DNA of 63,410 nucleotides, the filler included, from Folioceros fuciformis (lineage: Eukaryota): assembly GCA_049999805.1 (NCBI GenBank). It is 4 parts of 4 records of this genome, joined end to end, with 100 filler letters (N's around TTAATTAATTAA, not from the genome) between each part and the next. Parts side by side here need not be neighbours in the genome. Positions count along the whole stretch, not along the records: positions 26,997 to 42,250 come from JBNGIO010006004.1; 3 more parts are not named here. One strand, 5' to 3'. Shown one piece after another: positions 12,849 to 45,300 of the stretch. Made by a program: the position numbers and the translations under genes. The notes beneath the pieces are model-generated. The model was not told the origin of the DNA and did not search any database. It saw only the letters and a list, made by a program, of their open reading frames with translations. Numbering within the stretch: position 1 is the first letter of the stretch; every line of letters begins with the position of its first letter.

Positions 12849-12920
12849 AGCTCCCGGCGAGGATCGAACTCGCGACCTTTCGCTTACGAAGCGAACGCAC
12901 TACCACTATGCTACGGAAGC
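12849..12920 (-). tRNA. trnT-CGU: tRNA-Thr(CGT)
   Basis: Reverse complement GCTTCCGTAGCATAGTGGTAGTGCGTTCGCTT-CGT-AAGCGAAAGGTCGCGAGTTCGATCCTCGCCGGGAGCT folds as a cloverleaf with A/B boxes. AT-rich TATA-like sequence lies upstream and a T-run about 50 nt downstream. Confidence 0.95.
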
Positions 12921-16100: not shown

Positions 16101-17174
16101 CAGCGGGGCATCTAGGTTAGCACTCAGTATTTCCTTGGTCCGCTTCACCTGCTTTTTCAGCTTGGCCATAGCTTTGGGGAATTGGCGGACATCGAACCCA
16201 CCCCCCACCTGCTTGTTGAACTGATCAGCGAAGTACTCCACAAGCTTCATCTCCATGGCCATGCCACCCAAGTTGGCATCCCAACGGACCCCCTTCACCT
16301 GCATCCAGACCCTCAAGTCAGAATCATCCATTCTCAACCCACACTCACCCACCCAGAACAGCAGAAACTCACCCCACCCCCACATCACCTGAAACTGATT
16401 AAGCGAGGTGGGCTTCCCCTTATCCTTCGCCAGGTAGGAAGAAAAGGTAGCCACAGCCGCGTACACGCTGTTGGCTCCCATATCATAAAACACCACATTC
16501 CTGGTCTCGTTCGCAAAATCCTTATCAATCCCATACTGCAAAGCCGCCCCCGAATGCTCATTGACAAGCGCTAGGACACTGATCCCCGCCACCTGTGCGG
16601 CAGATAAGAGGGCCCGCCTCTCCCCCTGCCCGAAATAAGGCGGCACGGTGATCACGGCGTCTTTGACCACCCCCTTCACGTGGGCTTCCCCGAGCCCCAC
16701 CGCGTAATGCAGCAGCATAGCGAGCAGCTCCTCGGAGGAGTAAACGACAGAGCCGTCGTGGATCCGGAACGCGGCAGCCCCGCGCTCGTCCTCCACTGCC
16801 TCCAGAGGCACGTAATTCCGCCTCAGCGCCTCCCGCACCTGGGCCACGTCCTTCCCCACCAAGTCCCGTACGCCGGAGAAAACCCTCTCCGGATACCGCG
16901 CCGTGATACCGGCCGCACTCTCTGCCAGCAGGCGCTCCCCGTTCGAGAAGGCCACCAGAGCGGGGGACTTCCGCTTGGACATCTCGTTGATGGCGACCGA
17001 GATAGGCGCTTGACCCGGGCGCAGATTCACCACTGCAACCTTCACCCACTCTGATCCCAAATCGATGCTGAGCACGGCGGCCTGGGCCGGGAAAATGCTC
17101 GGGCTCCCCAGCAGGAGCAGCGCCACGACCGAGACCAGCAGCAGGCTCAGGCGGAGGCCCGGCCTGCGCTCCAT
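13183..17174 (-). CDS. HSP70-17: ER-luminal Hsp70/Hsp110-type chaperone (HYOU1/GRP170 orthologue), multi-exon
   Basis: Signal peptide, SIDLGSEW, AINEMSKRKSP, ITVPPYF, FYDMG, ELLGGATRVPKLQ, LDSDEAVVLGAA, and C-terminal HDEL. Many short GT-AG introns. Confidence 0.93.
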
Positions 17175-17503
17175 CGTGCCTCCTCTTCCGCGGACACTAC
17201 AGGGCGATCGGGCAGTCCCGCTCTCCACAACGCCGTCAGATTGACTCCCGGCCGCACAAAGAAGCCCGAGTTTCGTCCCCACGGCACAGGACTAAATGCG
17301 TACCGATGCTTCACCAAGTGGAGCTTCAGTCATGTCCGAGACCGAGTGCACTGCTCCCAGCCCTGACCGGGAAGGTCGCAAGGCACGCGAGGGCTGGAAC
17401 TATGGAACGGAACGGCAGGACGCGGCGGGGACCAGGCCCACAAACTCACCAAGGGGCCGTTATGCCGTGCCAGCGCGCCGCGTGGACTTGACACCTCTTT
17501 CCA

Positions 17504-21888: not shown

Positions 21889-24800
21889 CTAGTTAGTTTG
21901 AAGGGCTTTAACATAAAGATTATGCAAGTTTTCCAATCTCGCAAGCCAGACCGCCCTATCTAGTCCTAAGTCTTCCACCTTATCATCATCCTCCTCCGAG
22001 TCGGCTCCCCTACTATCCATGGAGTATGCATACCACCCTTCCCCTCCTAAGGCTGGTTGTTGCCTTAAGACCTGTTGCACCTTTTCCTCCAGTCCCTCGT
22101 GCAACCACAAAAAGATGAGTCTGACATGCCGGGCCCTTAAACCAAACTCCCCTTTGATCTCTTCTATCTCCTTCTACCGAGACTCAGATCTATTCCATAG
22201 ATGCCTCAGTTGGATAACGCCTCTCCGATAGGCTAACCCAAAAATTTGTGACCATATACCCTTGACCTGAACTCCTACACCCACAACCTCGAGAACCCCT
22301 GCAAACGAATACCAAGAACATCATCCGCACATGAAAATTCACCTAGAGTAATGTATCATTTAACCTCCAAGTAACTGCTCCAGATGGACTTGAGGAGTGG
22401 GGAGCATCGTGCAGTGTTGAGAATCAGTTTGTCGGCCAGAATGTTGTCGATAGATCTTCTTCCCCGGGGGACAGCCTGGGTGCAGTCCATATGTTGTGTT
22501 AGAAGGCTCTTCCAAGGATAGTACGTCGGATCGGCTGCTCTGACAACCCACTGGGCATGCAACACTTTCATCTTGGCAACCGGGTCCACCACCCCAAGAC
22601 CCCCCGACCCACGTGCCTGAATAATATGCTGCCAAGCCGCTTTAGAACACCCAACCATACTATCCCCCGAACGCTTCCACAGAAAGGAGGTCAACACCTG
22701 TTGTAAGCGTTTCACCTCTAACTTGGAAGGGACCCATAAGAGCAGATAGTACCATAAAGAGGCAGTAAGGATATGATTAATCACCACCAGCCTACCTGCC
22801 AGATTGAGCTCCAGTAGCTGAAGACTATCCGCTTTGCGAATAAACCTGAGGCATACGTACTTCCCAATCTCCTCATTCTCATCTTCCTCTTGAAACGGAA
22901 GCCCCAAATACTTGTGAGTTGAACCCGGAGTCACTTGCCTAATGTAGTTCATGCATTGAGGAATCTCCCCGTCCAAGTGGAGACACATCATGCACGTCTT
23001 ACTCCAGTTCACCTTACAACCAAATAGTTCGCCAAAGACCTTGACCTGTTGGAGCAGCGCTTTCAATGAGGCCTCCTCAGCCAAAGAAAAGAGTAGAGTA
23101 TCATCTGCAAATGCAGAGACCCTCAACTGCGTTCCATCAGGGTTCCGAATTCCCACCATTGCTGGGTCTTGCTTGACTGCTCTGAGAGAGAAGTCAATGA
23201 CGATAATAAATAAGAATGGAGCAAGGGGGCAACCTTGACGTACCAACCGAGAGATGCCAAAGCATTCCGTAAAGGACCCATTTACAGCCACCTTGGCTCC
23301 TGCGTCTTCACACAAAATGGCTATTCATCTGCAGAAATTGTTCCCAAGCCCAAAGCTACGCAAACATCACCACAGGAAATGCAATTCAACAGAATCATAA
23401 GCCTTGTAAAAGTCAAGGGAAATGAAGATGGCGGCTTTCTTCTGTACCTGAGAGTCATACTTGGCTTCCCTCAGGAGTAATAGGTTGTCCAGGATGCACC
23501 TGTTTTGAATAAACCCTCACTGTTCTTTCTCAATCCAGTCATCAAGAAAGGGACTAATTCGATTAGCCAATACCTTAGCAATCACCTTGTATGTGCACGT
23601 GAGCAAGGTAATTGGGCGCCAATTGGAGATTGAAAGGCTGGCATCTTGCTTAGGGAGTAGGGAAACTCCCCATGCTACCTTCTTCCCAAAACATACTAAC
23701 GGCTTCCATGAATAACGGTTGCATAAATTCCCACCCCCACAGCAGGAACTCGGGAGGGATGCCATCGTGTCCTGGGGATTTATCCCTCAGCATCCCCTTC
23801 GGGGCCTGGAACACCTCGTCAACAGTTATCGGCTTATCCAAATCCCTGCGCAGGTTAGCACACACTTTAGCCGAAAGTGCACCATAAGAAGAAGACCAAA
23901 GCCGTTCCCACCCTGCCGCCTTCCCAACACTTGAGAATCTGCCAACAAAAAAGAGGGTAATAAGAGCTTTTAGAGCTTCAAGCAATTCCTGCACCACGCC
24001 ACACGCGTCTGGAAGGGCTGGAATTCGCGTCCTATGTCGGTTAGAAGTCACCTTGTCGAAGAAGAACTTAGAGGGGTCGTCCCCCTCCCTCACCCACTTG
24101 ACTTTGGCCCGCTTAAACCAACCTCTCGCCCTGTCTTCTTCCAACTTGGCCAAAGCGCACTGCACCTTCGTTTTCCTGGCCTCCTCCGCACATGTGAGCT
24201 CCCGGCCTTCACAGCTCCTCTGTAATCAGCATAGGTCCTCCCTCAAAAAACAATCTTGTTGGCGTCGTTCTCGCGCTCGTTGAACCCCTAATCTCCTTAA
24301 ATACCTAGTCACCTCATTGTTAGCACACATCAATTTGACTGCCGCGTTATCTTCCCCCTACTCAACTCCCTGCCAGATACTTTTGATATCTTCAAAGACC
24401 CCTTTTTCCTTCAGTAAGGATGTGTTCATCCGAAAATTTTGCATAAACCTCCTTGGGCGCACACCCTCTGGCGCAAGCCCCAAGTGCAAGGTAATAGGAT
24501 GGTGGTTGGAAAGGATCGTACCAGCAAGAATACTGTATGACTGTACGAAGGCCAACCACCCTGAGGGTAGATAAAACCTGTCCAACCGGCGCGCTCCCAA
24601 ATTCTGTTGTTGTTGATTGGACCAACTAAACATCAAGGACTGAGGGTGGCGATGAGCCGGGAGGGCCACCCAGGGATCCTGCACAGCCAGGACCGTGTCT
24701 CTCAACTCCTACCAAGACATAGGCACCGCCCGGATATCTCTTGGGCTCTCCCCTCGAATGTCCTCACGACATTCAACAAAGTTGAAGTCACCCACCAACA

Positions 24801-26896: not shown

Positions 26897-26996
26897 NNNN
26901 NNNNNNNNNNNNNNNNNNNNNNNNNNNNNNNNNNNNNNNNTTAATTAATTAANNNNNNNNNNNNNNNNNNNNNNNNNNNNNNNNNNNNNNNNNNNN
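26897..26996. other. Artificial assembly spacer N44-TTAATTAATTAA-N44
   Basis: Exactly 100 nt with stops in all six frames; identical to the spacers at 42251 and 57104. Confidence 0.97.
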
Positions 26997-27077
26997 GGGT
27001 CAGGGAAAGGAAAGGGGAAATTTGCAGCCACTGCCGCGAGTGGCAAAGGCAAGAAGCAGAAAAGGGGTAGACGATAG
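26997..27077 (+). CDS. RRS1: 3' end of a second RRS1 copy, truncated by the gap
   Basis: Matches 35742-35822 with one mismatch ([26 protein letters not shown]). Confidence 0.7.
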   Translation, partial: GSGKGKGKFAATAASGKGKKQKRGRR

Positions 27078-29130
27078 TTGCACACACGCTAGAGTCTTAC
27101 TGGAACAGTTTGATCATCTTTGAATGGAAGGTTATCAATTGCTCAGTGCGAAGAGAATGTACAGTCGGGAACTAAAGCACCGAAGCAGACACAAGTTGGA
27201 AACTGAGGTTGGAATGTTGGCTAGATGGTGCCCAAGAGAGCTCCGGCACTTGGGCACAGCTTACACATGGGTGAAGCTGCCGCTGGGGATCACAGCAGCG
27301 ACATTTCCAGAGCAGTTTCCTTGCGGCTCTTTCGAATGCTTTGCTCTGGATGTGATGTTTTTGATGGGAATGAATTAGCTACATAGACTGAAGTATAGAT
27401 TACACCGGAGTCGTGAATTACATTTCGGTATGAGGGGAATAAAGTCCGTCAAGGCACGGCTGTACCACTGAAATGTAGTAGTTTGCACCCTGCACTGTTG
27501 TGTGAACAGTCTGTCTGCGCCCACTTGTAGGGGAGGCTGATGACGCTTTGAGATGCCAATGGTTGTTGAGTCTGTTGGTGACGCTAACGCAGCCGACGCG
27601 TGGCGATCTCGTACTCGTGCCATGGCTTTCCTGCCAGCACGAGGCGTGAGGCGCAGGTTTGCAAAGCACAGGAATTTGCTTCGCGTTGGTCTCAAGCAGA
27701 GGAGGCAGTGACGCCGAACAAGATCAGCTAGACTGTGGGACGACCCGCTATGGACCGTCTCGGCATCTACCTGACGTTCAGGCATGTCGAAGTCCGGAAT
27801 GGCACAACCGTTCTGTGGTACCGATAGAGATCCCAACCCATCAATTGATGCCCGACGTGGTTGTTAGATATCTAGGATATCAGAAATTCTCGCTGCAGAG
27901 CCCACAACCTGGAAGTGATATGGGACAGGTGGAGGACTCCGAGACCCTCGAGTGGCCTCACCTGAAGTTGTCCACGGTACTTCCAGGCAGAGCTCCAGAT
28001 CCGGCACCCCCAGCAGGAGACCTCAGGTTGCATTGTCCGTCTCGATCAAGACAGGCCCCTGCATCCAGAGGACGGCAGCATGGCACCCCCGCGTGAGGGT
28101 AGTTGGATGGTTCGACACCGCTTGCTTTGAAGTTTCGAGTGGCCTGATGGTTCACGTTGGCTGCATTCCAGGACCTTCAAAATTCTGCTATGTGGTACTC
28201 TCTTGACCCTCAGGAGAAAAGCTGACATCAGAGAAGCCAACACCCTGTGGGCCCGTTACACTCGTAGGAGCCCCGACATCTGCCCACATATCCACCCCGT
28301 CTACAAAGTGCTTCCTTGGCAGTGTCCCTCACGGAGATTGCATCGCTCGCAACCCATTCAGGTGTACCTTCGATGCTCTGCTACTCCGTGCTCAAGTCGA
28401 AGGAAGGAAAGACGGGGCGGCGGCGCATGCCTCTCGGATCCATGTCCATGAGCCACAAGACACCTGGAATCTTCGTAGCAAACACTTGGCATCGTGGAGT
28501 TTCTCTAATTTGGGCACCACCACATCTCGGACACTGTTGCCACTGTGTGCTCGTTTGCCCTCTCTAAAATTGAAGGTACCACCCGGCCTCCTTCGGTCAA
28601 ATGCACAACCTCGTTCCTGGAAATGGAGCCTTGCCGCGTGATGTTTGACACCAACTATCCTACTCTCGCTATATATTGTACCTTGTCCACGTGAAGCCAT
28701 GGCCAGTGGGTCTTGTAACATATGAATAGCACGAACCTCCCATAAAAGCACCTGCGGGTGCTTCCTCGTGCGCGTTTGGAGACGACCCCGTCAGCAGTCT
28801 TTCTTCTCCTCGATGCATTTGAAGTCTGAGAAGACGTCAAAGGTCTGCAACATCTGATTGGGCACTTGATGAATTCTGAATGTCAGATGGGTCTTTAATC
28901 TAGTACCAATTGCGTAGTACATCCAAAAGAGTTTGAAGCAGAAATCCTTGCTTGAACTCATTTTCGACAACGAGAGCTGGCCAGGGTGTGGGAGACAACA
29001 AGTCTCATGTGAGTATGTGTTATGGGTAGGCCATTCCGGGTCTCCAACCTCTCCTCCTAGTTGCTTACCGTGAACGGAAGTGAAGGCACAAGCAGTCGAG
29101 CACCCGGGTCTCTTCACTTCGTAATAGGCT
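26997..29130 (+). repeat. Segmental duplication copy 1 (paralogous to 35742-39130)
   Basis: Colinear blocks, e.g. GCAGCCGACGCGTGGCGATCTC, TCCAGGCAGAGCTCCAGATCCGGCACCCCC, GCCTCTCGGATCCATGTCCATG. Confidence 0.9.
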
Positions 29131-29174
29131 GTGGTTGCAGCCAGCGTGGGTTGATGAAGATTAGACTCGTTTTC

Positions 29175-30230
29175 ATGGATATGCGGATGGGTCATGGTTC
29201 TCCTCCACCCGGGTCCAGCTCTTCGAGTGAGCCGGGTAGGCGTGCAGGATGGGACGTGGGTTTGACAACTGTGAGCACATTACGTGAGCAGGGGAAGCTT
29301 TCAGAGGCCGTTGGAGTCCTGGAATCTTTGGGGGCACACGGATTCTGCTGTTCCTCAGACCCTGCTTTGCACTGTGCTGAAATTGTGTACATCTGAGAAG
29401 GATCTGGCTGTGGAGCGATGAGTTCATGACCTCACTGTCAAACGTGGGTTCGTAACGAGGCGAATGCATACCTGGGGAATCATAGTCTGCGCATGCATTC
29501 AGGTGGAGGTAGGCTAGGAGAGGCCATAGATGTGTTCACCAGAGTAGGCAAACCAGATGTTATCACGTGGGGTTCCATCAGCTCTGCATATGCCAAGCAT
29601 GTGAAGCCTAAAGAGGCCATACAACTGTCCCATGAGATGTGTATGTCAGGGGTGAGGGCGAATGATCATGTCTTTGTGGCTGCCCTTCAAGCCTGTACAT
29701 TTGCTGCGGACTTGGAGTCCGGCAGGAAAGTGCACTTCGACGTATTGCAGGGTGCCATTCCCACTAACTTGTTTGTTGACAACGGAAGGGCCTGGTGGAC
29801 ATGAATGCAAAATGTGGCGCACTGAAAGATGTACGCCAGCTGGTTGACAGCATGGCTACAGAAGGGCGTGGTAACATGGAAGGCCCTGATATCTGGTTGT
29901 ATGAGCTGAAACATGCATGTGGCTTTTTCGACAGCATGACGGTGAAGATTGTGGTGACATGCACGGCTCTGATTGGTCTCGGCCATTGGAACAAGGCCAC
30001 ATTTTGGCTAACCATGTCACTTTTTCTTGCCTCCTGAAGGCCTGTGCAAGAACTGGTGCCTTGGAGAAGGGCAGGCAGCTACACTCACTGATTGTGGAAA
30101 GAGGACTGCTGGATAACGTGGTGTTGGACAACTGCTTGCTGGACATGAATGCAAAATCTGGCACACTGGAAGATGCATGTCCAGCGTTTAACAACATGAC
30201 CACAAAGGATGTTGCCATGTGGAATATGCG
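29175..30230 (+). pseudogene. PLS-PPR pseudogene
   Basis: Fragments LREQGKLSEAVGVL, DVITWGSISSAY, VFVAALQAC, TFSCLLKACARTGALEKGRQLH, LLDMNAKSG are split by frameshifts and stops, and the gene ends abruptly at VAMWNM. Confidence 0.85.
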
Positions 30231-30413
30231 TGTCCTTAGAGATAAGTTGTCTTTTCATAATAAGTATTTTATGATTTTCTTTATATATATATATATATAT
30301 ATATAATAGCAAGAATTATATGTATTTATTCATTTTATATATTTTATTAATCTATACAGTCTTATAATCTAAGACTATGAGTTTTTTTTTCAACGTAGAT
30401 GCTATTCTTAAAA

Positions 30414-33400
30414 TTACTTAATTAATTTTGTACGCTTGGGATTAGACAGAGGTTGTATTTCTTCTCCCATAGTATGTTTCAAATTGGATTTAGATTGGAG
30501 GTGTAGACTTTGTTGATGCATTATGTATCCTTCATCGACTTCATGTTGTTGATGTTGGTGTGGTTGCAAGTTATCCCCTTGGTGAAGTTGTTGCTCTAGA
30601 TCATGGTCTGCAACCATATTCATCATGAAATCGTGCAAGTCCAAGTCATCGACATGGGGATCCTCCAAGTTACTAGAAGATGCATAGTCCCTTTCATCCA
30701 CACGTAGAGCTTGCCGAACCCCATCAACTTGTTGTTGCTGAATTCCCAAAACAGGTTGAATTCCTGAAGCTTGTTCTACTTGAGGGTAATTTTGAGGTAC
30801 CTCATATATGTCATAGTCCCTTTCATCGACATGGGTAGCTTGCTGAACCTCATCAACTTGATTTTGTTGAATTCCCGAAACTAGTTGAATTTCTGAAGCT
30901 TGTTCTACTTGAAGGTAATTTTGATGTACATACCCTGTGTCAAAGTCCCATTCATCGATATAGGGAGCTTGTTGAACCTCATCAACTTGCTGTTGTTGAA
31001 TTCCTGAAACTAGTTGAATTTCTGAAGCTTGTTCTACTTGAAGGTCATTTTGAGGTACATCAAACCCTGTGTTAAAGTCCCATTCATTGACATCGGGAGC
31101 TTGCTGAACCCCATCAACTTGATGTTGTTGAATTCCTGAAACTAGTTGAATTTCTGAAGCTTGTTCAACTTGAAGGTCATTTTGAGGTACATCAAACCCT
31201 GTGTCAAAGTCCCATTCATCGACATGGGGAGCTTGCTGAACCTCATCAACTTGATATTGTTGAATTCCTGAATCTAGTTGAATTTCTGAAGCTTGTTCTA
31301 CTTGAAGGTAATTTTGAGGTACATCATACCCTGTGTCACAATTCCATTCATCGACATGGGGAGCTTGCTGAACCTCATCAACTTGTTGTTGTTCTACTTG
31401 AAGGTAATTTTGAGGTTCATCATACTCTGTGTCATAGTTACATTCATCAACATGGGGAGCTTGGAGAACCTCATCAACTTGTTGTTGTTCTACTTGAAGG
31501 TAATTTTGAGGTACATCATACTCTGTGTCATAGTTCCATTCATTGACATGGGGAGCTTGTTGAACCTCATCAACTTGTTGAATTCCCGAAACTAGTTGAA
31601 TTCCTGAAACATGTTCTACTTGAGCGTAATTTTCAGGTACATCATACTCTGTGTCTTGTACCCATTTGGACATCAACTGTGTTAGAGATGTAGTACGACT
31701 AGCATGCTCTATGCGCAGCTTGTCTAGGCTTACGGACACCATCTTGATTTGCTCCTCCTTCTCACCAATTGCCTTTCTTATCTCAACCTGACTCATTTTA
31801 GCCAGACAAGCATACTTCCTCATGCGTTTTGCATCATCAATTCTGGTTTGGGTCTTCATATTGGATGCTTGTAACTAGAGGAGAATAGACAAACAATGTA
31901 TCCCAAGTTAAAAATAAGTAGGAAACACACACCAAAACATGCATGACCATAATCCATTGTGTGTAGTGCTAAAGTAATTGCAATAACATGAAAAACAGAA
32001 AAACTTACTTGTTGAAGTTCTTGTTTCATTTTCTCAATGATGGCTTGCATGAATCCCCTCTCATCCAATTTCTTCTTCTTTTGTTGTTCATTGGAAACTG
32101 CTTTGTAACGATAAAGAACATGCTCCACACTCGGATGTCCCCAAACTATATTCACATTATTTTTATTCTTTGCGGTTTGGACACCGTTACAAATCAGACA
32201 TACCTCTACGTCACATAGTTTACTCAACTCGGTCGCCTTTTTCAATACACCCTTGCTGCGCTTTCCATAGGTGATATACCGTTGTTGTTCATTCACAATG
32301 GGCTGGATAATAATCTTAGATCGAGTAGGTTTGGGTGCAGCCAGCTTCAAATCGTCAATGTATGTAGCTTTCTCTTTGCCTTTGCCTTTACCTCCATAGT
32401 TAGGCCGGGCTGTTCCCACACCTTCTTCATCACTTTCTTCGTCCTTCCCTCCATAGCTCGGTTCACCAGCTTCCTCATCTTCTCCATCTCCATCACTTGT
32501 TTGTTCTAGATCTACACCTCCTCCATCACAAGAGGTCTCTCCATGTGCCCTAGAAGATGAGGGCTCATCATCCACCCTACAAGAGGCCCCTATGCTTGCC
32601 CCATATTGGGTCCCCACATTCTGCACATATGAAGTCCTCTCACCCGGCCTATAAGAGGCATTCATGTTGTTCGAGGTCCCCATGTATGCCGCCCCATGGG
32701 AGGGGCCCATGTGTGACCCATACGAGGTCGCCACATACGATGTCCCCACGTATGGGCCATGGGGGAGACCCATGCCTGGCCCATACGAGGCCGCCCCATA
32801 TGGGGTCCCTGCACCCTCCCTATACGGAGTCCTCTTGTTCGGCCTATGCAAGGCATTCATCTCATACGGGGTTCCCATGGATTGGCCGACATGGGAGACG
32901 ACCATAGGTGGCCTATGCAAGGCGTTCATCTCATGCGGGGTCCCCATGGATGGGCCGACATGGGAGACGCCCATGGGTGGCCTATGCAAGGCGTTCATCT
33001 CATTCGGGGTCCCCATGGATGGGCCGACATGGGAGACGCCCATGGGTGGCTTATACGAGGCCGCCCCGTATGGATTCCCTGCACCCTCCATATACGGGGT
33101 CCTCTCGTACGGCCTATGCAAGGCATTCATGTCGTATGGGGCCTGTACATATGGGCCATGGGAGGGGCCCATGTTTGGGTGATACGAGGCCGGCCCATAC
33201 GGGGTTCCCATGCCCTCCCTATACGGGGGCCTCTCGTACGGCCTACATGAGGCATTCATGTTGTATGGGGTCCCCATGTATGCCCCATGCGAGGGGCCCA
33301 TGCTGGGTTGATATAACGTTGCTCCATGTGGGGTTCCCATGCTCTCCCCATGAGGGGTTGTCCCGTACGGCCCTGGTTGGTAAATCTGAGGTAATTTAGG

Positions 33401-33439
33401 GTTTCCATTCACATTGCCTTCTCCGTTTACTCCCGCCAT
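30414..33439 (-). CDS. Type I (SRF-like, M-gamma/AGL80-like) MADS-box protein with N- and C-terminal tandem repeats; exons 33439-32009 and 31874-30414, about 963 aa
   Basis: MADS domain TRSKIIIQPIVNEQQRYITYGKRSKGVLKKATELSKLCDVEVCLIC (about 32326-32190), followed by VEHVLYRY..KKLDERGFM. A GTAAGT...CTCTAG 134-bp phase-0 intron joins the two ORFs in frame (ELQQ|LQASNMKT). Confidence 0.8.
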
Positions 33440-34001
33440 GGTGACTGCTAAGTTAAGTATTTTGTCTACAAGGATCATAAAGAGCACGAATGAAAATGAT
33501 TTGAACGTGAAACTCAAATGTATAGCTCCTTTTATGGGCCACACCAACAGATACTTTAAGAAAGGGAAAGAAGCCTAGCATAATCCATAATAAGTATAGA
33601 GACAAGGTTTATATAGACTAAGAAGATAATACTAATATAATACTACTACAATATAGACCTCTAGCTGTAAATAGTAATGTACTATTAATCTTAAAATCTA
33701 CTATTCCTGTAATTCACTCCTTCTAAGAGACCATGGCCAGCTTGAATTCAGACAAGGTGCTCTAAGGCATTCAGTCCACTCCGACTCCGATTGTGATTGG
33801 CAATTTGGAAGTTGTATGATGTCGAGGATGGAGGGGAGTTGCCAAGCATGCCCAATGTATGGATAGATAGGTCTGGTACCGTTGGTTTTGGGTGTCTAGA
33901 ACAAATACCGAGTAGTGGTGTCATGTCGTGATTAATTTTGAGGGCTGGGAAGCCGCGGTGTGAAGGGTGCTGCGAGCTGTACTCTTTGCTCGTGGCGAAC
34001 C

Positions 34002-35822
34002 ATGGCTACGGTGGAGGCAGAACGTGCTGCGCAGCCAGTTGCAGATGAGTACCAGATGGACTGTGGCAACCTACTTATCTTCCAGCCAAGAGATGTGGAA
34101 ATTCCGTCCAGCTCCACCCAGTAAGCACTTCCTAGTTTGACGATGATTTGCGTGACGATCCGGTTGTAGAGCTGAAGACAGGGCTGCCTTCTGGTGCAAT
34201 GTGACCAAATTGTTTGCCCCTGTTCTTGTTTGGGGGAAGGGTAGAGAGGAGTGCGACAGTGCGTGGCTGGAGAGTGCTACGTCGCTGGTGCAGGCTCTAG
34301 CCAACAGCTTGTTCGCTCTCCCCTGCACTGTTGACCGAAGTGGCAGGATTGCGTCCCTGCCTGAGCCGATAACGAGGCTTCCTCGAGAAAAGCCGGTGAG
34401 ACGGGGTCGGTCATGGGACCGTTATTGTGTGTGATGTTCTGACCTTGATTACAGATTTCTGAGGGTTGGAGGATTGGCTTGTGATTGCAGTTGCCCAAGC
34501 CAAGGCCTCCGACGAAATGGGAGCTCTTTGCCCAAAAGAAGGGTAGGTTTTATTTTTTGCGCCGTCATAGGGTGGCGAACGTGGACTGGAAGAAATTCGT
34601 AGCTCATTTCCGGGTTGTGCAGGCATTCAAAAGCGGAAGAGGAGCAAGCTTGAATTTGATGATAGTTCTCAAGAATGGAGGAGGAGGTACGGGTACAAGA
34701 GGGTTGCAGATGAAAACGAAATACCCATTATTGAGGCTAAGCCAACCGACGGTACTGGTCTTCCTGCTGTCTCCAAAATGTGGGCTTTACTGCTGGGAAT
34801 CTGGCGGCGCTCGCTGCTCAGAAGTATTGAAGGGCCAGTTTCGTCTTTTGGTTGCAAAATTCTGTCTTCAGTTTCTGCTCTCATGTGAACTTGCCGGCTG
34901 ATCGTCATCAGATCCGAATGAGGATCCATTCGCAAAGAAAAGAGGTGCCAAGAAACAACGTGTGGCAAAGAACGAATCCAATAGGTTGCAAAATCTGAAG
35001 CAGGCTGCCAAGGCTGGTGGGAAGGGAGCTTTACCAAGGTTTGTCTTTGAACACCAACTTCACCAATGTGCTGTTGAAGGTCGCTGCAGGGATTGACTCG
35101 TGCGTGGAAGCATCTGTGTGGCAGCACTTTGCAGCTAGCAGCAACTCAGGTACCAATCACAGGTGTGAAGGAGCCTGTGAAGAGACTCAATAAGGACGAA
35201 ATAGGTCATGCTGCCGGTCTTGCTGCCACTGCTACAGCGAGTGTTGGCAAGTTTGACAAAAAGCTTCCCGGGGAGAAGGCTGCGAAGCACCAGGGGAAGC
35301 ACAGGAAGGTGAGAACCAAAGTGCGTGGTTTCTGCCAACGTGGATATCCGGTTGTGTCTTAGTTTCAGATTATGTTGAGCAGCGCTTTGTGTTGGGGGTG
35401 GCAGTTCCTTCCAGTAGCTCCATCACGAGGAAATGGAAGTCAAGAGAAGCTCCAAATGCAGAGTGTGCTGGATAAAGTGATTTCTCGCCATGATACAGGG
35501 ATGCTGGATGTGAACAAGGTACCGTTTTGTGATGTGTAGTCCATTACTCCGTTTTGAGAGGCCCGGTTGCACCGTCTCTGACACTTGTGTATTGCGTCAA
35601 CAGGCCGTAAGTGCCTACAAGGTCCAAGAAGAAGGACAGCGAGCCAAGGAAAACGAGGCCAACGGTGGGAAGAAAAGGAAGTTTTCTTCCAAGGGACGTG
35701 CTGGTAAGGGAGCAGGTGGTGGAAAACGAGGAGCGGGAGCAGGGTCAGGGAAAGGAAAGGGGAAATTTGCAGCCACTGCCGCGAGTGGGAAAGGCAAGAA
35801 GCAGAAAAGGGGTAGACGATAG
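34002..35822 (+). CDS. RRS1: Ribosome biogenesis regulatory protein RRS1, multi-exon
   Basis: Spliced motifs [58 protein letters not shown], and a basic G/K-rich tail. Confidence 0.92.
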
Positions 35823-38800
35823 TTGCACACACGCTAGAGTCTTACTGGAACAGTTTGATCATCTTTGAATGGAAGGTTATCAATTGCTCAGTGTGAAGAG
35901 AATGTACAGTCGGGAACTAAAGCACCGAAGCAGACACAAGTTGGAAACTGAGGTTGGAATGTTGTCTGGACGGTGCCCAAGAGAGGTCCGGCACATGGGC
36001 ACATCTTACACATGGGTAGCGCTCCAGCACGGGAGCACAACATCGACATTTCCACAGCAGACTCCTTGCGGCTATTTCAAATGCTTTGCTCTGGATGTGG
36101 TGTTTTTGGTGGGAATCAATCGCCTAGTAGTGGGAATCAATCACCTACTAGCTGCATGGCCTGAAGTATGGATCACATCCGATTTGTGAATGACGTTCTG
36201 GTACGAGGGTAACAAAGTCCGTCAACGTAGGCCCGCATCGCTGAAATGTAGTCGTTTGCAACCTGCAGTTTTGTGTGAACCGTCTGACAGCGCCCACTTC
36301 TAGGAGAGGCTGACGACGAATTGAGACGGCAATTGTTGTTGTTGTGAAGAGTCTGTTGGTGTCGCCAACGCAGCCGACGCGTGGCGATCTCACACTCGTG
36401 CCATCGCTTTCCTGCCAGCACGAGGCGTGAGGCGCAGGTTTGCAAAGCTCAGGAATTTGCTTCGCGTTGGTCTAAAAGCAGAGGAGGTAGTGACGCCGTG
36501 CAAGATCAGCTAGACTGCGGGACGACCCGTAATGGACCGTCTCGGCATCTACCTGACGTTGAAGCATGTCAAAGTCGGGAATTAAGTACAACCGTTCTCT
36601 GGTACCGATAGAGATCCCAACCCATCAATTGGTGTCCTGACGTGGTTGTTGGATGGATATCAGCAATTCTCGCTGCAGAGCCCACAACCTGGAAGTGATT
36701 TGGGACAGGTGGAGGCTCCGTGCCCTCGAGCGGCCTCATCTGAAGCTATCCACGGTACGTCCAGGCAGAGCTCCAGATCCGGCACCCCCATCAGGAGACC
36801 TCATGTTGCATTGTCCGTCTCGATCAAGACAGACGTCCATGGATCCAAAGGGCAGCAGCATCGCCCCCCTGGGCGGGTAGTGAGCTGGTTCGTCACCTCT
36901 TTCTTTGAAACTTATAGAGGCCTGATGGTTCACGCTGGCTGCATTCCTGAACCTTTAAAATTCTCCCATCTGCTTCCAGCATGAGCCTCAGGAAAAAAGC
37001 TGACGTGTGAGAGAGGCCAACACCCCGTTACACTGGCAGGAGCTCCCATATCTGCCCACATATCCACCCCGGCTACAAAGTCCTTCCTTGGCAGTGTCCC
37101 TCACGGAGACTGCATCTCTCACACAACCCATTTCTGTACCCAGCCCATGCAGTACGGGGTTTCAACTTACGCACCAACATACATGTATGTCCTGCTAGCC
37201 CGATTAGCCCTGGCCGGCGGGTTGCAATCTGCGTTTCTCACACATCCACAAAAGCAAACTGACTACCTCACGCAAAGTACACCGGCGTACATATCATTCA
37301 TTCCGTTGTGCATCCTATCAGTGGAGCTCCTGTCATGCCACCCACCTGTGCTTCACTGACAACATAAACAAAGAAAACTTTTGCACAAAACGTCACGACG
37401 TGTACCTCGTCTGCAGCATAGGTGAGATCAAGGTTCTTAGAAAATCACACTGTTGGTGTCGTCTGTACTGCACGGTCGCCGTACTCATCCATCCCATGTG
37501 AATCAAATCATGTACATATGTATCCCCTACCCTACCTTGCGCCATGTCTTTATGACCAAGCCAAGCCAAGCCAGGACAAGGCAACCTGGTTCCAAAACTC
37601 GAACCCTAACCCTAGTCCTCACATACCCACAACCCCTTATCCTGATTCTCACATACAGTGACAGTGTCTGCATGTCAAGCAGATCCTTGGTACGATGCAC
37701 AGTGCCGAATGCATCCAAACAGCACAGTAAGCAAAAAGCCGCAGGACAGTGGCTGCTGTCAGTCACACATGCCTTGTCTCATCAGCTGCACCGTCGATGC
37801 TCGACTCCCCAACCCCAACACTCTCAAAAACGCATCGAAGTAAGGACTCGGCCCCGCCTCTCGGATCCATGTCCATGACGCCACAAGATACGTCTAGTCT
37901 GCGGAGCAAACACTTGGCATCCTCCAGTTTCGCTAATTTTGGAACGACCACATCTCGGAGACCGTTGCCACTGTGCGGCCCTTCCTTGGACGCCCTTTAC
38001 CGTCTTTCAGGGGTTTAAAACACCACCTGGCTTCCTTCAGTCAAATGAGCAACCTCGTTCCTGGAAACGGAGCCTTTGCCACGTGATGTTTGACGCCAAC
38101 TATTCTACAATATCTCCTCTACACGTGCTAAAATACTGTATGTTGGCTCTATACACAGGGCTGTACTGTGCCTCATGCACGTCAGGCCATGGCCAGTGGG
38201 CCTGGTAGCAACACATGAACAACAGGAACCTCCAATGAAAAACACCTCCGGGTGTCACATGTTGAGTCCTATCACTTAGTGGACGTTTGAGACTCCGTGA
38301 GCATTCTTTCTTCTCCGTCATGCCTTTGAAGTCTGGAAAGACGTGAGAGGTCTGCAACTGCAACATGTGCATATGCTCGTACACTCCATTACTTCTGAAT
38401 TTGACGTGGGCATTTCAATCTAGTAACAATCGCATAGTATACCCAACAGATTCCCAAGCAGATATTCTCGGTTGAACTCCATTTCTACGACGGGGTCTCC
38501 ATTGAGCGCGAGCGCTGGCCAGAGTGTGAGAGACAAGTAGTCACGAGTATGTGTCATGGGTAGGCCCCTCCGGTTCTCCACACTCTCCTCCTACTTGCCG
38601 GGCCCTCGTCTGTTGTTCCCGCCAATTAAGGATAGCTTACTCGCTCCATCCAGCTCCTCCTACCGTGCCTTCCAAAATTCGTAGTAAGATGACGTGATTT
38701 GCAAGTACATATCTACATGATATGGAATTGGCTCTCGTCAGAGAACCTCGGCTCACCGCACCCCAGGCTGGGGCAGCCACGCGGCTTCGAACGAGTTTCT

Positions 38801-39130
38801 GAGAAATTCGTTTCTGGGCGCTGACTTTTGAACTAAGCCGTACTTTTTCGATATTCCGAGAATTCCTTAAATTGGGAGCGGCACCGGAACCTGCTACGGC
38901 CTGTGCAAGGGCAGCAGGCGTCACCATGCCTTCGGCGCTTTGTGGGCGCTGATGATACGCATTCCTTAACAGGGTTGGAGCCAAAACTCGTGCTGTGGAT
39001 GCCTCCGGTCTTTTCTGCAATGGACTGACCGGTCTCGTCCAGTCGGTGGGAACTGCAGTCTCTTCGCACGCGTTTGATCGGACGTGAAGGGACAGGCAGT
39101 CGAACACTCGGTCTCTTCACTGTCGTAGTG
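35742..39130 (+). repeat. Segmental duplication copy 2, with two insertions relative to copy 1
   Basis: Aligns to 26997-29130 except for inserts at about 37141-37792 and 38600-39070. Confidence 0.85.
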
Positions 39131-39468
39131 GACTGAAACGGAAAGTCGAAGACCGTAGAAATGCAGAGCACGAGCGTCCGGTGCAACCCTGTTATTTGAT
39201 GCCTCTCGTGACCCCGTCCTCCACACAACCCCTAGTCCCCGAGTCACGTTGATCGAAAGTCCCAGAGGCCGTAACAGGTCCCCGTTCCCGTCCCCGTTCC
39301 CGTCCCCGTTCCCGTTCCCATTTCCAATCTAAGAAAATGAGAAAAATGAAAATGTACGGTCATGTCCAAAGTCAGCGCCCAGAAACGAATTTCTCAGAAT
39401 CGCGTTCGAAGCTGCGGAACGTGTCTGAGTTGACCCTCAGACTCCATGACGAGAGCCTTGGCAATTCC
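38724..39468. repeat. Inverted repeat, arms about 38724-38902 and 39267-39468
   Basis: 32-bp perfect core (38797-38828 vs 39368-39399) with imperfect extensions on both sides, and a CCCGTT/CCCGTC microarray in the right arm. Confidence 0.85.
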
Positions 39469-41479
39469 AGCTCTTAGGGATCATAAATTGGAGTGGACAA
39501 AAACACTTTGCCGAGAGTGAATTTGTTGTCCTTCATCCCAAGAAGCTTAGCACATATGTATGAAATGCCTGCCCCAAGTCAAATGGAATCGTTTTCTCTT
39601 AAGTCAATAACACAGCAAAAAGCTTGTCCTGTGTTTTCAAAAAGTTAAATTAAACTAAATGCATCTATGGTTTATGATTCCCTAGATTCCACACTTGTAG
39701 GATTGATTCTCCCACATACTCCTACATCTACATCTACGAAAAAATCCCAAGAAAGTACTTGGAGAGTGTCATGGTTACAATGGTGCCACATGTTGTCTCT
39801 AAGTTTGAAACAAAGTGGGTTTTGTGTATGTGCAAGAATGGGATTGGAGCATATTCAAGTACATGATTCCTTATGAACTTAGGCAAATTCCTATGAGCTT
39901 GCTTGATGTTTTGTCCCTTGATTGTACATACTTTGTCGTGTAAGTTGGGTTTTGGCAATGGATTTAAGTGGGTTTGGTTTAGATCTCCATTGAGAAGATG
40001 AAAGAATAATTCTCTTTGTTGCTTCCTTGCTACTTCTTCTCAACTCTATCATCTTGTCCTATCTTGTGACCATGCACTTGTGACCTCATGCAACCCACTT
40101 TAATGGACATGGGAGCTCCTCCTTTGTATCACTATTACATCATCACGTCTCGTAAACTCAAGAACTATAAGTTCAAGGAATCCAGCAAGCATTAAATTGT
40201 GGAATCAAAGTGCATAGTATGTAATATGCTTTCATAATACAAACGTAAGCCATGTAACTTTGGTAACCACGATTGTCACTTAGTGACAAAGTATTCCCTA
40301 AAACTTGGGCATGCAATGTCAACGCGGTTTGGTTTTGTTGCAAGACCCAATCCTTTTTAAGAATCTTAAGATGATCATGTAAAATAATCGTCTGATTTAT
40401 ATATAATAATAATAATGGGTGTGAGAAGTTAATGCTTGCACTTCACTCAACATTGCATGTGGAATAAGCTTCAGTTGAAATGCATGTTGTGTGGTTAAGG
40501 TGACTACCTTACATAAGATTCTTTTACACCTTTCTCCTATGATATTATTTAAATGTTTAACAAAGAACAAAAGTGAGAGTAACGTGGGTCTTCTTGGGGC
40601 AAGGGCTGCCTAAGCATTTTTAGTTAAAAAATGAGTTTACTTTCATATAAGCCTTGTTGTTGACAAGGTGTGAGAATATTTATCTCGATTCATGTCATCT
40701 AGAAGTTTGTGCAACATAAGTAAAAGGGAAGATTGTTTGCCAAGCAAACATAGCTGGCTCTCTTTGTTCCAACTTTCATAGGAAATAGCACTTCCGCCAA
40801 GTTATTTTAATACCACCATGACCTACAGATGATAAGTGCTTATAAAATATATTTTATAAGTGTTTAAAAAAAATAAAATTTGATAATGATAGATGTGCTT
40901 GCGATTAGTTGATTAGTTGTTGTGGTATCTAAAACCTAATTGTCCATCCAAGGACAGATTAGTGATTAATTAAAAATAATTTGGTTGACAAAAGTCTCAT
41001 ACAAGTAGATCCTTAATTTCGTAAGCATCAAATGAGAGCAAGTTTGAGTCACAACTCCCACCAAGGATTCCATATAGCAACATGTTATCAACCCTATGGC
41101 TTGGGGTGGTGGAGGAATGCATGACATGCAATGTCTACAAGGGTTCTTTAAGGGGATGCAATGGGGAAGAAATTCTATGTCCATCTACCCTAAATAAGAG
41201 GAGGAAAGAATCCATAGAGAGTTGAAAGCCAAGAAGGGAGTTAGCCTTTGCAAATACCAATGGCACAAGTACCCATAGCCTCTAAGATAACATGGCCTAC
41301 TTGAACTCAAGCGCACAAAGATGGATGTTAGTAGACTTGCTTAGTACTTGACATGTAAACAATGTTTGCTAAAGCCCTTCCCATGTGTGTTTGTTAAAGA
41401 TCAATACAATCGTCGTTTGTTAAAACCCTTTGTACAGGAATGGAAATGCATTCCTGAATGAAAGCATGCCACCACCAAA

Positions 41480-41880
41480 GAAAGAAGGCCACCACGAAAG
41501 AAAGGCAGGGAAACTCAACCCGTTGCTGTGATAGACTGTAGTAAGTTTTTGTATAAGTCTTGAGAAGTCCTTACCATGGTCCTTCCTATCGTCTCGACAA
41601 GAGGAAGAAGAAGAAGGCCACTATGAAAGAAAGAAAGGGAGGGAAACCTAGCCCATTGCTGTGATAGACTGCAGTAAGTTTTTGTATAAGTCTTGAGAAG
41701 TCCTTACCATGGTCCTTCCTATGGCCTCGGCAAGAGGAAGAAGAAGAAGAAGAAGATGAGAAGTCCTTACCATGGTCCTTCCTATGGCCTCGGCAAGAGG
41801 ACGAAGAAGAAGAAAATGAGAAGTCCTTACCATGCATGGTCCTTCCTATGGCCTCGGCAATAGGAGGAAGAAGAAGAAGG
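41480..41880. repeat. Nested tandem repeats (~133-bp and ~60-bp units containing GAGAAGTCCTTACCATGGTCCTTCCTAT and (GAA)n)
   Basis: The core recurs at about 41561, 41695, 41758 and 41818. Confidence 0.85.
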
Positions 41881-42250
41881 AGGGGGACAAAAGGGGACCG
41901 TCCATGGAGAACATACTTTCATTTTTGATAAGGGGGTCTTGAATAGATTATGGTTGTAGAAAACAGGTACAAAACATAGAAGTGGGTTAGTTGGGTCGTT
42001 AGTCCTGGGAGCCTGGCAGGCGAGTCTTGCACACCATCGACCATGGCTTCTAAGGGAGAGACGCGAAGGACCAGGGGAGACAGGTAAATGTGTACACGGT
42101 ACAGTACATCTGTATATAGACGTCGGTCGAGGTTGGGAGGAAATTGGAACAGACAGAAGACACGCATAATCGGACGAAGATGGCCGTAGAAAGTGCGCGC
42201 GTACGGTCGGGAAGAGAGACACATTTAATGAGCGGAATGGAAGGGCGAAG

Positions 42251-42350
42251 NNNNNNNNNNNNNNNNNNNNNNNNNNNNNNNNNNNNNNNNNNNNTTAATT
42301 AATTAANNNNNNNNNNNNNNNNNNNNNNNNNNNNNNNNNNNNNNNNNNNN
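42251..42350. other. Artificial assembly spacer
   Basis: N44-TTAATTAATTAA-N44. Confidence 0.97.
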
Positions 42351-45300
42351 GCCTGGCTATTCAATATTATAATTAACTCAGTTATGATATTTCACTAGGA
42401 TAGTGCACTTATCTTGCACTTCATAATGACTCTCCCAGGCTCTTGGTCGCATTTGGTGACTTCGTATAACACTTCACAAATGCAAGGGCAAAAATCGCTA
42501 AGGCTGTTGATGTTGATCTCCCCAAAACCAAATTTTCAGAGTTTGTAGGAGCTCTACTGCAGGAAGAAGCAACAAGAGGAACACTTGGCAAACAAGCTGG
42601 TAAGGAACAGGCCCTCTACACCACCAATAAGAACAAGGGAGGAAGGCCCAACTTCAAAGGCAAACAGAATGCCTCAGGTGGTGCTAGTAGCTCACAGCAA
42701 GCATCTTCACAAAAGAAAACACCCAAAAAGACTGGAAAGTGCCACTGGTGCCAAGTTCTAGGTCATTGGGAAAGCGAGTGCAGAAAGAAGTAGGCCGGAA
42801 TACCTCGCAAGGAGGGCAATTCCACTTCTGAAACACACGTTGTTGTGAAGAAACAAGGCTCTCCTGCTGCCCTGACTGTAGGTACCATGCAGTTTGTACG
42901 TCCTCTTGCTCATCCAACCTGCTTGTCAACAAATATTCAAGGTAAACCAGTTCGTGAGTGGTACCTTGACACTGGTGCAACAGTGCACATTTGTTTTGAT
43001 AGGAATGCCTATGTCACATACAGACCAGTTAAAGGACAGTGCGTTTACCTGGGTGACGATAGGTCCCTTGTGTCTCCTGGAATAGGCACAGTTAAAATTC
43101 CTGTCCCTTCAGGGGTCACATTGATGCTAACAGATGTATACTATGTCCCTGAAATGACTCGAAATCTCATCTCCGTTAGGAAGCTAAACATGGATAACAA
43201 TAGCCACATCCTCTTTACTCCAACAGAATGTAGAGTCATCGATGCATATGATCATCGAAAAGTACTAGCTTATGGATCATCTGATCATGATCTATTTTGC
43301 TTGCACACAAATCTTGGTGTAGCCACAGCCCATCTAGCTTCCCAGACTTCAGATGTGTTTGCACAAACAGTCGAGAAGGTCAAACTATGGCATGCACGCC
43401 TAGGTCACCCTCACAGTGCTAAGCTACAGAAGCTGGCTACAAGTGACCTATACTATGATGGGAAAATTGGGCTACTACCATCCTTACCTTTGTGTGAAGC
43501 TTGTGTGCTTTCTAAGCGACACCAGGTAGCTTTCAAGAACAGAACTCCATATCGAGCTTCTGAGGTTCTTGAATTGGTACACACTGACATATGTGGCCCA
43601 CTCTCACAGCCCTCTCTTGGAGGAGGTCGTTATTTCCTCATATTCACAGACAACAAAACCAGATTTGTCACTGCTTATATTCTGAAAGCTAAGAGTGAAT
43701 GCTTTTCCTATTTCAAGGACTACTTGAGATATGCAGAAAGATGGACTGGAAAACAACTAAAGACTCTCCGCTCCGACAATGGGGGTGAATACACATCTAA
43801 TGAGTTTCAAGCCTATTGTACAGCAGAAGGGATTGGGAGGCAACTTACAGTGGTCTACACGCCACAGCAAAATGGTGTAGCAGAACGCTTGAATCTAACT
43901 CTTCAAGAGATGGTGTCTTCTCTGTTACATCACGCTACACTGCCCCTTCCCTATTGAGCTGAAGCCCTTATGACATCTGTCTACCTACTCAACAGGCTGC
44001 CAACTATTGCTGTTGACAGACAGACGTCATATGAAGCTTTCTTCTGTCGAAAGCCTTCAATTCAGCACCTTCGCACCTTTGGTTGCATTGCTTATGCCTT
44101 CATCCCAAAGGAGAAACGCAAGAAGCTCTCTGCAAAATCCAAGAAGCTTCTTATGATTGGTTACACTGAGGGTATCAAGGCATACAAGTTGTATGATGTT
44201 TCCCGTGGCCAAGGCAGCTATTCTAGAAGCGTTACCTTTGACGAAGGACGATTCTGGCAGCCAGTGGGAGCTACTCCCACGTCTAAGGAGGACAATCTAC
44301 CAGATGATCTTATACTTCCTGATGTCACTGTTTTTGAGAACTTCGCTCCTGAGGAGATTGCTCCTGCAGGGGGGGAAGGACAGCAACATGAGCAACAAGA
44401 ACAAGACAATGAACAGGAAATTCCAGGAAATGCAGATGCAGAACTTGCAAATGAACCTGAAAATGTTGCTGATTTGCAGCCGCCACCTCCTCCAGTTAAT
44501 GATCAGCCAGATTCCGATGATGCTGAAGGTTCACTCGTCGATGCAAACAGTGATTCTAATGATTCCCAACAGCCTGAACAGGCAACAGCGCCTGTAGAGC
44601 GTCGTTATCCTACTCGAGAACGACGAGCTCCAGATTATTATAAGGCTCCAGATTTCAGACCCACCTCTTCACATGTTCAGATCAATTCTGCTATGTCACT
44701 TGATCCTTTAGAACCACAGACTCTTCAGGAAGCACTTAGCAGACCTGACCACAAAGAGTGGGAGAAGGCCATCCAATCCGAGTATGATTCCCTGATAGAA
44801 AATGGCACATGGGAGTTAGCTGAACTTCCACCTGGCAGAAAATTGGTGTCATGCAAATGGGTGTTCAAACTGAAAGTCAAGGCTAATGGTACCTTTGATA
44901 GGTATAAGGCCAGACTTGTTGCAAGAGGTTTTTCCCAAGTACCTGGACTTGATTACTTTGAAACCTTTGCTCCAGTTGTGAAACATGCCACCCTACGCAC
45001 CATCTGTGCCCTGTCGGCATACAAGGACTATGAACTACAGATGTTCGATGTAAAAATAGCCTTTCTGATTGGCAAACTTGATACTGAAATTTACATGCAG
45101 CAACCTCCTGGCTATGAGGTTAAGGGCAAAGAAGCCTATGTCTGCAAGCTAATAAAATGTTTGTATGGACTTAAGTAGTCAGCATTAAAGTGGAATGTCG
45201 AGCTAGACATAGAATTGCTAGCTCTAGGATTCACTAAAAGCAAGGCTGATGGCAGTCTGTACATCTATATTAATGGAGAGGTCATGTGTTACTTAGCTGT

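Follow-up and report, generated by a model that had tools for sequence, protein, structure and literature searches.

We analyzed a 63,410-nt stretch of DNA from Folioceros fuciformis (NCBI GenBank assembly GCA_049999805.1), which is made up of four parts of four genome records joined end to end and is hereafter called the window. In the part taken from JBNGIO010006004.1 (positions 26,997 to 42,250), its minus strand carries a predicted two-exon gene of the MADS family, whose MADS domain lies in the interior of a very long open frame. All coordinates are those of the whole stretch, and residues are numbered from the first in-frame ATG (33478) unless otherwise noted. The gene is composed of two minus-strand open reading frames (ORFs), 33478..31856 (540 aa) and 31859..30414 (481 aa); when 33478-32009 and 31874-30414 are joined in phase 0, they form a single open frame of 976 codons, or of 963 codons when counted from the ATG at 33439. 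A gene at 30414-33439 with two ORFs, a 134-bp GT-AG intron and a fusion product of about 963 aa had been proposed in an earlier reading of the sequence (hereafter the original prediction), and all of them were reproduced on recomputation. The placement of the MADS domain between two tandem-repeat arrays in one continuous frame was likewise borne out. The features of the locus are listed in Table 1.

Table 1. Features of the MADS gene and its candidate signals, in the direction of transcription
Feature	Coordinates	Strand	Basis or remarks
Candidate TATA box, TATATAAA	33608..33615	-	Consensus match only, in AT-rich DNA (34% GC); 137 nt 5' of the first in-frame ATG
Upstream in-frame ATG, context tttATGa	33476..33478	-	Gives a 976-aa protein
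Likelier start codon, context aCCATGG	33437..33439	-	Gives a 963-aa protein
N-terminal low-complexity array, residues 47-300	32579..33340	-	Tandem Repeats Finder and unit alignment
Linker, residues 301-385	32324..32578	-	Asp/Glu/Gly-rich acidic stretch (net charge -13), then basic GGKGKGKEK patch
MADS domain and conserved I-like region, residues 386-490	32009..32323	-	Pfam SRF-TF part at 32189-32299
Predicted phase-0 GT-AG intron, 134 bp	31875..32008	-	Consensus splice signals and frame
Lys/Arg/Glu-rich segment, residues 491-560, net charge +7	31665..31874	-	
C-terminal acidic Gln-rich aromatic array, residues 561-900	30645..31664	-	Tandem Repeats Finder and unit listing
Gln/His/Leu-rich tail ending NPKRTKLIK, then TAA stop (30414-30416)	30414..30644	-	
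Candidate polyadenylation signals, AATAAA (two)	30325..30348	-	Consensus matches only; 66 and 84 nt past the stop

The gene model contains one intron, which is predicted from the sequence only. The donor site (CAA/GTAAGT, where the slash marks the splice site; GT at 32008-32007) matches the consensus perfectly, and the acceptor site, TTCTCCTCTAG/, has a pyrimidine tract and ends in CTCTAG/ (AG at 31876-31875). If the intron were retained, the exon-1 frame would terminate 50 codons in. Given that 134 is not a multiple of three, exon 2 cannot be read unless the intron is spliced out, and the frame of exon 2 is opened by the TAG of the acceptor itself. The GC content is 33% in the intron, 29-34% in the flanks and 39-59% in the exon segments; in other words, the drop in GC content is confined to the intron and the flanks. 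Upstream, the frame is bounded by an in-frame stop just above 33574. Across the N-terminal 383 codons, no stop occurs in the proposed frame, as against 7-28 in each of the other five frames, and 2000 shuffles gave 15.7 stops on average, with a minimum of 3. We also scored the six frames with a codon model, and the proposed frame ranked top in six of six segments.

The Pfam search that had been suggested along with the original prediction was run, and the model SRF-TF (PF00319) matched residues 394-430 with an E-value of 2.8e-13 and a score of 49.5 bits (cut-off, 26). The MADS domain begins with a conserved Arg at residue 386, or 373 when counted from the ATG at 33439, in agreement with the predicted start of the domain near residue 372. 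Sequence matches in the PDB were MEF2 (2e-8), MCM1 (2e-5), SRF (3e-5) and SEP3 (6e-5). The query retains 16 of the 18 columns that are conserved in at least 90% of 37 homologues, the exceptions being Met384Pro and Leu411Val. In the AlphaFold model built with this homologue alignment, the predicted local distance difference test (pLDDT) score of residues 385-490 is mostly 72-94, with 60-62 in the loop at 431-450, and the core is predicted to consist of a helix at 397-422, short strands at pLDDT 83-88 and helices over 451-489. When the model was compared with 48,161 solved chains, the top three matches were MEF2D (Z 6.2, 88 residues aligned, root-mean-square deviation (rmsd) 5.3), MEF2A (Z 5.2, 70 aligned, rmsd 3.5) and SRF (Z 5.1, 54 aligned, rmsd 1.9). 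Although modest, the scores point to the right family. Pfam gave no K-box match in either exon, even at E-values up to 10 for exon 2, and tblastn found no second MADS copy in the window.

We searched 1.84 billion representative proteins with exon 1 and obtained 430 matches at E ≤ 1e-3, among which 13 had E ≤ 1e-10 and none E ≤ 1e-30. The statistics given here refer to the best 150 of these 430 database matches, which comprise 132 single-MADS and 18 multi-MADS sequences. The best 150 align only within residues 342-490, nearly all of them from about residue 365 on, with a top identity of 45%; over residues 386-489, the relatives are 33-45% identical to the query. We looked up 19 clusters, and those that carried names were MADS proteins of Adiantum (a fern), Psilotum, Diphasiastrum (a lycophyte), Ginkgo (two), Cunninghamia (two) and Sphagnum, as well as angiosperm AGL80 or AGL82, so that gymnosperms and a moss are included.

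A quick maximum-likelihood tree was calculated from 43 hand-picked rows and 114 columns, that is, from the query, 37 of the 132 single-domain matches and five outgroup domain pieces, whose labels (Malpha-like or MIKC-like) are our own reading of those five sequences. The query was placed within an AGL80-like Mbeta/Mgamma clade of 38 rows, with a support of 99 in the Shimodaira-Hasegawa-like approximate likelihood ratio test (SH-aLRT). Together with the lack of a K-box match, this agrees with the earlier assignment of the gene to type I (M-type). The Mbeta/Mgamma group includes the PHERES-type proteins of Arabidopsis. It was described as an ancient ‘Clade 2’ of type I genes in a part of the study by Gramzow et al. 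(2012, PMC3442193). In our tree, the query is sister to P0001 (support of 92), its nearest relative, a protein of 173 aa that has Leu at the position of the canonical start Met and extends 17 residues further upstream. In the P0001 ORF, which lies on a 4.1-kb contig, the family resemblance is lost exactly after the homologous ELKQ, where the next codon is Val (GTN). This break coincides with the intron position of the query and is only a hint that a phase-0 intron may be shared. These sequence features suggest that P0001 and the query may constitute a sub-clade of N-terminally extended MADS proteins with a shared intron.

The start Met of the homologues aligns to Pro384 (CCT) of the query, and the first in-frame Met encountered on going upstream is residue 272. 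Since no Met lies nearer than this, at least 113 residues precede the domain, barring an unseen exon spliced just before the MADS box. With the start codons of Table 1, the number becomes 372-385 in a protein of 963-976 aa, and 23 in-frame Met codons lie ahead of the domain. Among the 132 single-domain matches, by comparison, the number of residues before the conserved Arg has a median of 2 and exceeds 20 in nine proteins, 50 in three and 100 in none, so that the architecture does not appear to be common in databases, an objection that the original prediction had itself raised. The length of these matches has a median of 235 aa and a maximum of 537 aa. The query thus departs from the usual type I layout, in which the MADS domain stands at the N-terminus of a short protein. 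The general statement that plant MADS domains are normally N-terminal has to be qualified, because four Selaginella type I genes are annotated as N-MADS-C in a part of PMC3442193.

We read 27 of the 150 match sequences directly, including multi-domain ones. Multi-domain matches with an ‘internal’ MADS domain were rejected as precedents, because those that were read are tandem duplications of a whole MADS unit; judged from their sequences, they are probably fused gene models. A keyword search of the literature, which was not exhaustive, did not turn up any plant MADS protein described as being flanked by repeat arrays at either end of the domain. No relatives were detected for either flank. The architecture is rare, yet a type I N domain is already on record.

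The two repeat arrays are built as the original prediction had described them. Tandem Repeats Finder reported periods of 69 and 129 at 32841-33348 for the N-terminal array (78-93% matches for the arrays of both flanks). The array consists of four full 43-aa-based units ([M/A]G[T/N]PYG...MNA.HRP..R.PY.EG) and a 13-aa remnant; the third unit carries a 23-aa sub-unit in three copies that are 93% identical in DNA and stem from a young triplication. The composition is 15% Gly, 14% Pro, 9% Tyr, 8% Ser, 8% Met and 6% His, with a net charge of +3. The term ‘prion-like’, in the Gln/Asn-rich sense, that had been tentatively applied to the array does not match its composition, given that Gln and Asn make up just 25 of 287 residues (8.7%) and that Gly, Pro, Tyr, Ser and Met dominate; it is rather a Gly/Pro/Tyr/Met low-complexity region. 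In the AlphaFold model, residues 16-385 show no secondary structure and have pLDDT scores below 50, and the N-terminal part is thus predicted to be disordered. We found no Pfam family for this array, no Atlas match for the N-terminal 370 aa and, among the best 150 matches, no alignment before residue 342 or so, which does not show that relatives are absent.

The units of the N-terminal array are older than those of the C-terminal array: their pairwise proportion of synonymous differences (pS) is 0.34-0.61, and the overall ratio of non-synonymous to synonymous proportions (pN/pS) is 0.55. Changes are fewest at the second codon position (14, compared with 26 and 27 at the other two). On the opposite strand, at 32557-33399 (plus strand), three overlapping frames are open for 116-177 codons across the array. 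They are a by-product of the GC-rich repeat and do not speak for a plus-strand gene.

Past the junction, AlphaFold gave low-confidence helices at exon-2 residues 10-24 and 30-36, within the Lys/Arg/Glu-rich segment. The coiled-coil-like segment that the original prediction had placed after the MADS domain was considered through AlphaFold helices only. In the array that follows, Tandem Repeats Finder reported periods of 132 and 96 at 30686-31580, with 89-92% matches. The array is made up of a partial leading unit, two units of 32 aa, three of 44 aa, two of 43 aa and a degenerate last unit, and the consensus unit is QVDEVQQAPHVDEWDYDTGYDVPQNYLQVEQASEIQLVSGIQQH. It contains 20% Gln, 14% Val, 11% Asp and 10% Glu and has a net charge of -64 over residues 561-890; these 330 residues include 68 Asp and Glu, 4 Lys and Arg, and 29 Phe, Trp and Tyr. 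On the strength of its sequence, the array would qualify as an acidic activation domain in composition. The activation-domain idea of the original prediction thus stood as far as an acidic and aromatic composition goes, and composition is all that was compared. Comparisons of the C-terminal array with Pfam gave sub-threshold matches only. A word-based search with exon 2 scored 7997 candidates without a match, no usable Atlas match was obtained, and a word-based search with the MADS region for 297-945 aa also found nothing; none of these searches shows absence.

We also counted the changes that separate eight units of the C-terminal array from their consensus, leaving out the degenerate ninth unit. 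There were 44 distinct changes, comprising 8 synonymous changes, 36 non-synonymous changes and no stops, compared with 10, 31 and 2.9, respectively, expected at random; the probability of finding no stop is 0.05. All three small indels within the units are 3 nt long.

The gene is bracketed, together with fragments of a PPR gene, by direct repeats (26997-28358 and 35742-37132) that are 85% identical over 1.36 kb. They continue at 68% identity over about 0.7 kb, to 29064 and 38598, with an insertion of about 0.7 kb in the second copy. The copies are about 2 kb long, non-coding and 8.75 kb apart, and the left end of the first abuts a run of N, so that this copy may extend further. They could stem from a dispersed element or from an ancient segmental duplication; they are not like a clean pair of long terminal repeats. 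Between the first copy and the MADS gene, PPR repeats occupy two or more frames of the plus strand at 29430-30306 (ORFs 29430-29804 and 29917-30306). They converge on the MADS gene, ending about 108 bp from its stop, and are probably a frame-broken pseudogene. Another PPR gene, at 6997-9294 (minus strand), is intact; its single ORF encodes a 765-aa protein that has an E motif.

Elsewhere in the window, an uninterrupted frame of 2176 codons at 332-6862 (plus strand) codes for the largest subunit of an RNA polymerase. This protein comprises Rpb1 domains 1-5 and, at the C-terminus, a DUF3223/DeCL domain, as in NRPE1 of Pol V. Its best matches are liverwort and moss proteins at just 40-44% identity, and the lack of introns at such a size is unusual for the family. 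From the gene content and these matches, a land plant, probably a bryophyte outside liverworts and mosses and possibly a hornwort, was deduced as the source. A Ty1/copia-type pol region (integrase and RVT_2) at 42794-46306 (plus strand) is broken up by in-frame stops into three successive ORFs. Further retroelement fragments lie at 53824-54789 and 22356-23324 (both minus strand); one of them is a second RVT_2 and the other an RVT_1. A divergent Hsp70-like gene at 13183-17291 (minus strand) has profile positions 1-287, 288-343, 343-401 and 494-546 in separate ORFs, some of which overlap, so that either its introns are very short or its frame is shifted. We had considered this gene as a yardstick for intron size, and it was dropped, because its pieces overlap or shift frame and no clean intron can be defined. 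The only Rfam family that reached the gathering threshold in the window was a tRNA gene at 12849-12920 (minus strand; 67.6 bits). Three identical patterns of N, each with two 44-N runs separated by 12 bases, are present at 26897-26996, 42251-42350 and 57104-57203, and a 10-N run at 12555-12564; the pattern at 26897-26996 meets the edge of the first direct-repeat copy.

What is directly established is that the frame is open, that the splice sites match the consensus, that the core is conserved and to which MADS family and clade it belongs, together with the predicted disorder of the N-terminal part, the absence of detected relatives for both flanks and the rarity of the architecture. We consider it somewhat more probable than the contrary that the locus is an intact, two-exon, fast-evolving, lineage-specific type I (AGL80-like Mbeta/Mgamma) MADS gene in which both arrays are coding. 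Several observations weigh against this interpretation. The gene model comes from genomic sequence alone, and homology with the relatives ends at the splice junction: exon 2 scored 1.1 bits against a profile of the post-MADS region of the relatives (shuffles, 0.2 +/- 1.3), and 174 of 937 scored shuffles equalled this score. Cross-junction homology was rejected as a proof of splicing, because the score is not significant, and the join between the exons therefore rests on the splice signals and the frame only. The training set of the codon model was small, consisting of just two large neighbouring genes. The exon-2 AlphaFold model had a mean pLDDT of 45.8; this best model placed beta hairpins over the repeats at 50-76, and the other four models averaged 27-35. 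Since the model is unreliable, disorder of the C-terminal array is not shown, and the model was set aside for fold search because of its low confidence. In addition, the terminal branch of the query is long (0.99, compared with a median of 0.3), which would also fit relaxed constraint. The contigs of one run labelled as the same species (X1; 143,725 contigs, 49 million letters) included none on 31620-32840, which is no evidence either way.

The remaining points against an intact gene concern the arrays. The pairwise pN/pS of the C-terminal units is 1.1-1.4, and synonymous changes are not enriched among them (8 compared with 10 expected). In the N-terminal array, an event test over 43 shared codons counted 23 synonymous changes against 17.5 expected, which is not significant (P = 0.08). 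The original prediction had argued from the open frame to selection. This argument turned out to be weak: the absence of stops in the C-terminal array, the 3-nt indels and the pN/pS of the N-terminal array speak for it, whereas the pN/pS of the C-terminal array and the non-significant event test do not. Taken together, the sequence changes suggest, without proving it, that selection acts on the openness of the frame and on composition rather than on the exact sequence.

The gene may also be real and the model wrong: there might be further introns within the arrays, exon 2 might not be joined, translation might start internally (e.g., at Met272) or an unseen 5' exon might precede the MADS box. 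With exon 2 unjoined, the product would be a protein of 527-540 aa with an intron-encoded end. The loss of homology at the junction, the 23 in-frame Met codons that precede the domain and the prediction of the junction from genomic DNA are compatible with such errors, and predictions in this family are often faulty, given that 18 of the 150 best matches are tandem-fused multi-MADS predictions. However, in no segment does another of the six frames outscore the annotated one, 976 codons without a stop would be needless if parts of them were intronic, the GTAAGT donor is perfect and in the right phase, the acceptor marks precisely the point from which exon 2 is open, and the GC content falls only in the proposed intron and the flanks. 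A start at Met272 would moreover still leave the 113-aa extension. We regard a wrong model of this kind as unlikely. We give a similarly low probability to a young, unexpressed or decaying copy, which would have lost its start codon and, through local duplication and slippage, acquired an in-frame fusion with repeat-rich DNA, with neutral repeats in which stops have not yet accrued. The replacement of the canonical Met by CCT, the C-terminal pN/pS of about 1 with its marginal deficit of stops, and the long terminal branch would all fit such a copy, as would the surroundings, with retroelement fragments in the window, an adjoining frame-broken PPR gene and 2-kb direct repeats on either side. 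Rapid gene birth and death is also reported for type I genes, and in Selaginella the majority of them had no expressed sequence tag (EST) support, according to a part of PMC3442193. Against decay, 16 of the 18 conserved MADS columns are intact, the N-terminal units are old and yet free of stops with pN below pS, the three small indels keep the frame, and 2.9 kb are stop-free despite many Gln, Glu, Tyr and Trp codons that are one step from a stop. Finally, tandem repeats are prone to collapse and expansion during assembly, and a mis-assembled repeat might have created a chimeric frame. This is very improbable in our view: there are no runs of N inside 30414-33478, unique segments (the linker, the MADS core, the post-junction segment and the tail) link the arrays in one frame, and the arrays hold diverged, ordered units.

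If the locus is an intact gene, as we prefer to read it, then the ancestral start codon would have been lost, and the frame would now start about 370-385 codons upstream. A normal MADS and I-like core for DNA binding and dimerization (386-490) would thereby lie embedded between two repeat regions that may still be expanding, in a protein made at about 963 aa. We infer that this core may bind CArG-type DNA as a dimer, by analogy with MADS proteins in general. The C-terminal array, with its acidic units studded with Trp, Phe, Tyr and Leu, would act as a multi-copy acidic activation region, and the Tyr/Gly/Pro/Met-rich N-terminal region as a multivalent low-complexity interaction region, both arrays being shaped mainly by selection that maintains the open frame and the composition rather than the exact sequence. 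A more specific proposal is that the full 963-aa protein is made after loss of the start codon, that its two independent, still-expanding arrays are an acidic-aromatic activation array of 8-9 copies and a multivalent, Tyr/Gly/Pro/Met-rich N-terminal region that causes clustering at target sites, and that copy number tunes activity between individuals. We put this forward tentatively and judge it rather unlikely in its entirety.

Of the two halves of this major family of plant regulators, the type I genes are, to our knowledge, the poorly understood one, and hardly anything is known of them beyond the flowering plants. They are reported to have diversified strongly in mosses and hornworts in a part of a 2026 review (PMC13293092), and to be present in hornworts and lost in Marchantia in a part of the 2020 hornwort genome paper (PMC8075897). 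If the 963-aa protein is made, it would be by far the largest plant MADS-domain protein among those searched here. If the gene is expressed, it would represent a transcription factor that has gained large low-complexity arrays on either side of a conserved DNA-binding core, and it would offer a convenient way to study how the number of repeats determines the strength of activation or the degree of clustering. If no expression occurs, the locus would indicate that this family quickly yields odd, open but idle frames, which calls for caution in gene annotation.

The closest known proteins are the AGL80/AGL82-like members of the Mbeta/Mgamma group. The query resembles them in the MADS domain and the following region (W..P....V..RY......EQ.KKKLD...F), in having no K-box and, according to the predicted gene model, in having 0-1 introns. 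However, their post-MADS motif (..WD.RL......L..L) is undetectable in the query, and they are short proteins with an N-terminal MADS domain, whereas the query has 963-976 aa and tandem repeats without detected relatives in both flanks. SmMADS12, 18, 19 and 20 of Selaginella moellendorffii are likewise type I proteins with an N domain before the MADS domain, being annotated as ‘NMC’ in a part of PMC3442193, where three of the four have two exons and none of the four has EST support. They are likened to the query by annotation alone, and repeat arrays are not described for them in that part of the source. Ginkgo Gb_05359 (P0112) belongs to the same clade as the query. Its non-MADS N-terminal extension of 98 residues exceeds that of any other of the 132 single-domain matches; it is four times shorter than that of the query, is non-repetitive and may be an annotation artefact. 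Outside the plants, the animal SRF and the fungal MCM1/ARG80-type proteins match the core of the query in fold and in sequence. They belong to another MADS lineage with unrelated flanks, and the query is nearer to MEF2 than to SRF (2e-8 compared with 3e-5). In SRF-type proteins, the MADS domain is internal and has long regulatory or activation regions on either side. Given this internal position in SRF/MCM1-type proteins, an N-terminal extension such as that of the query is compatible with DNA binding.

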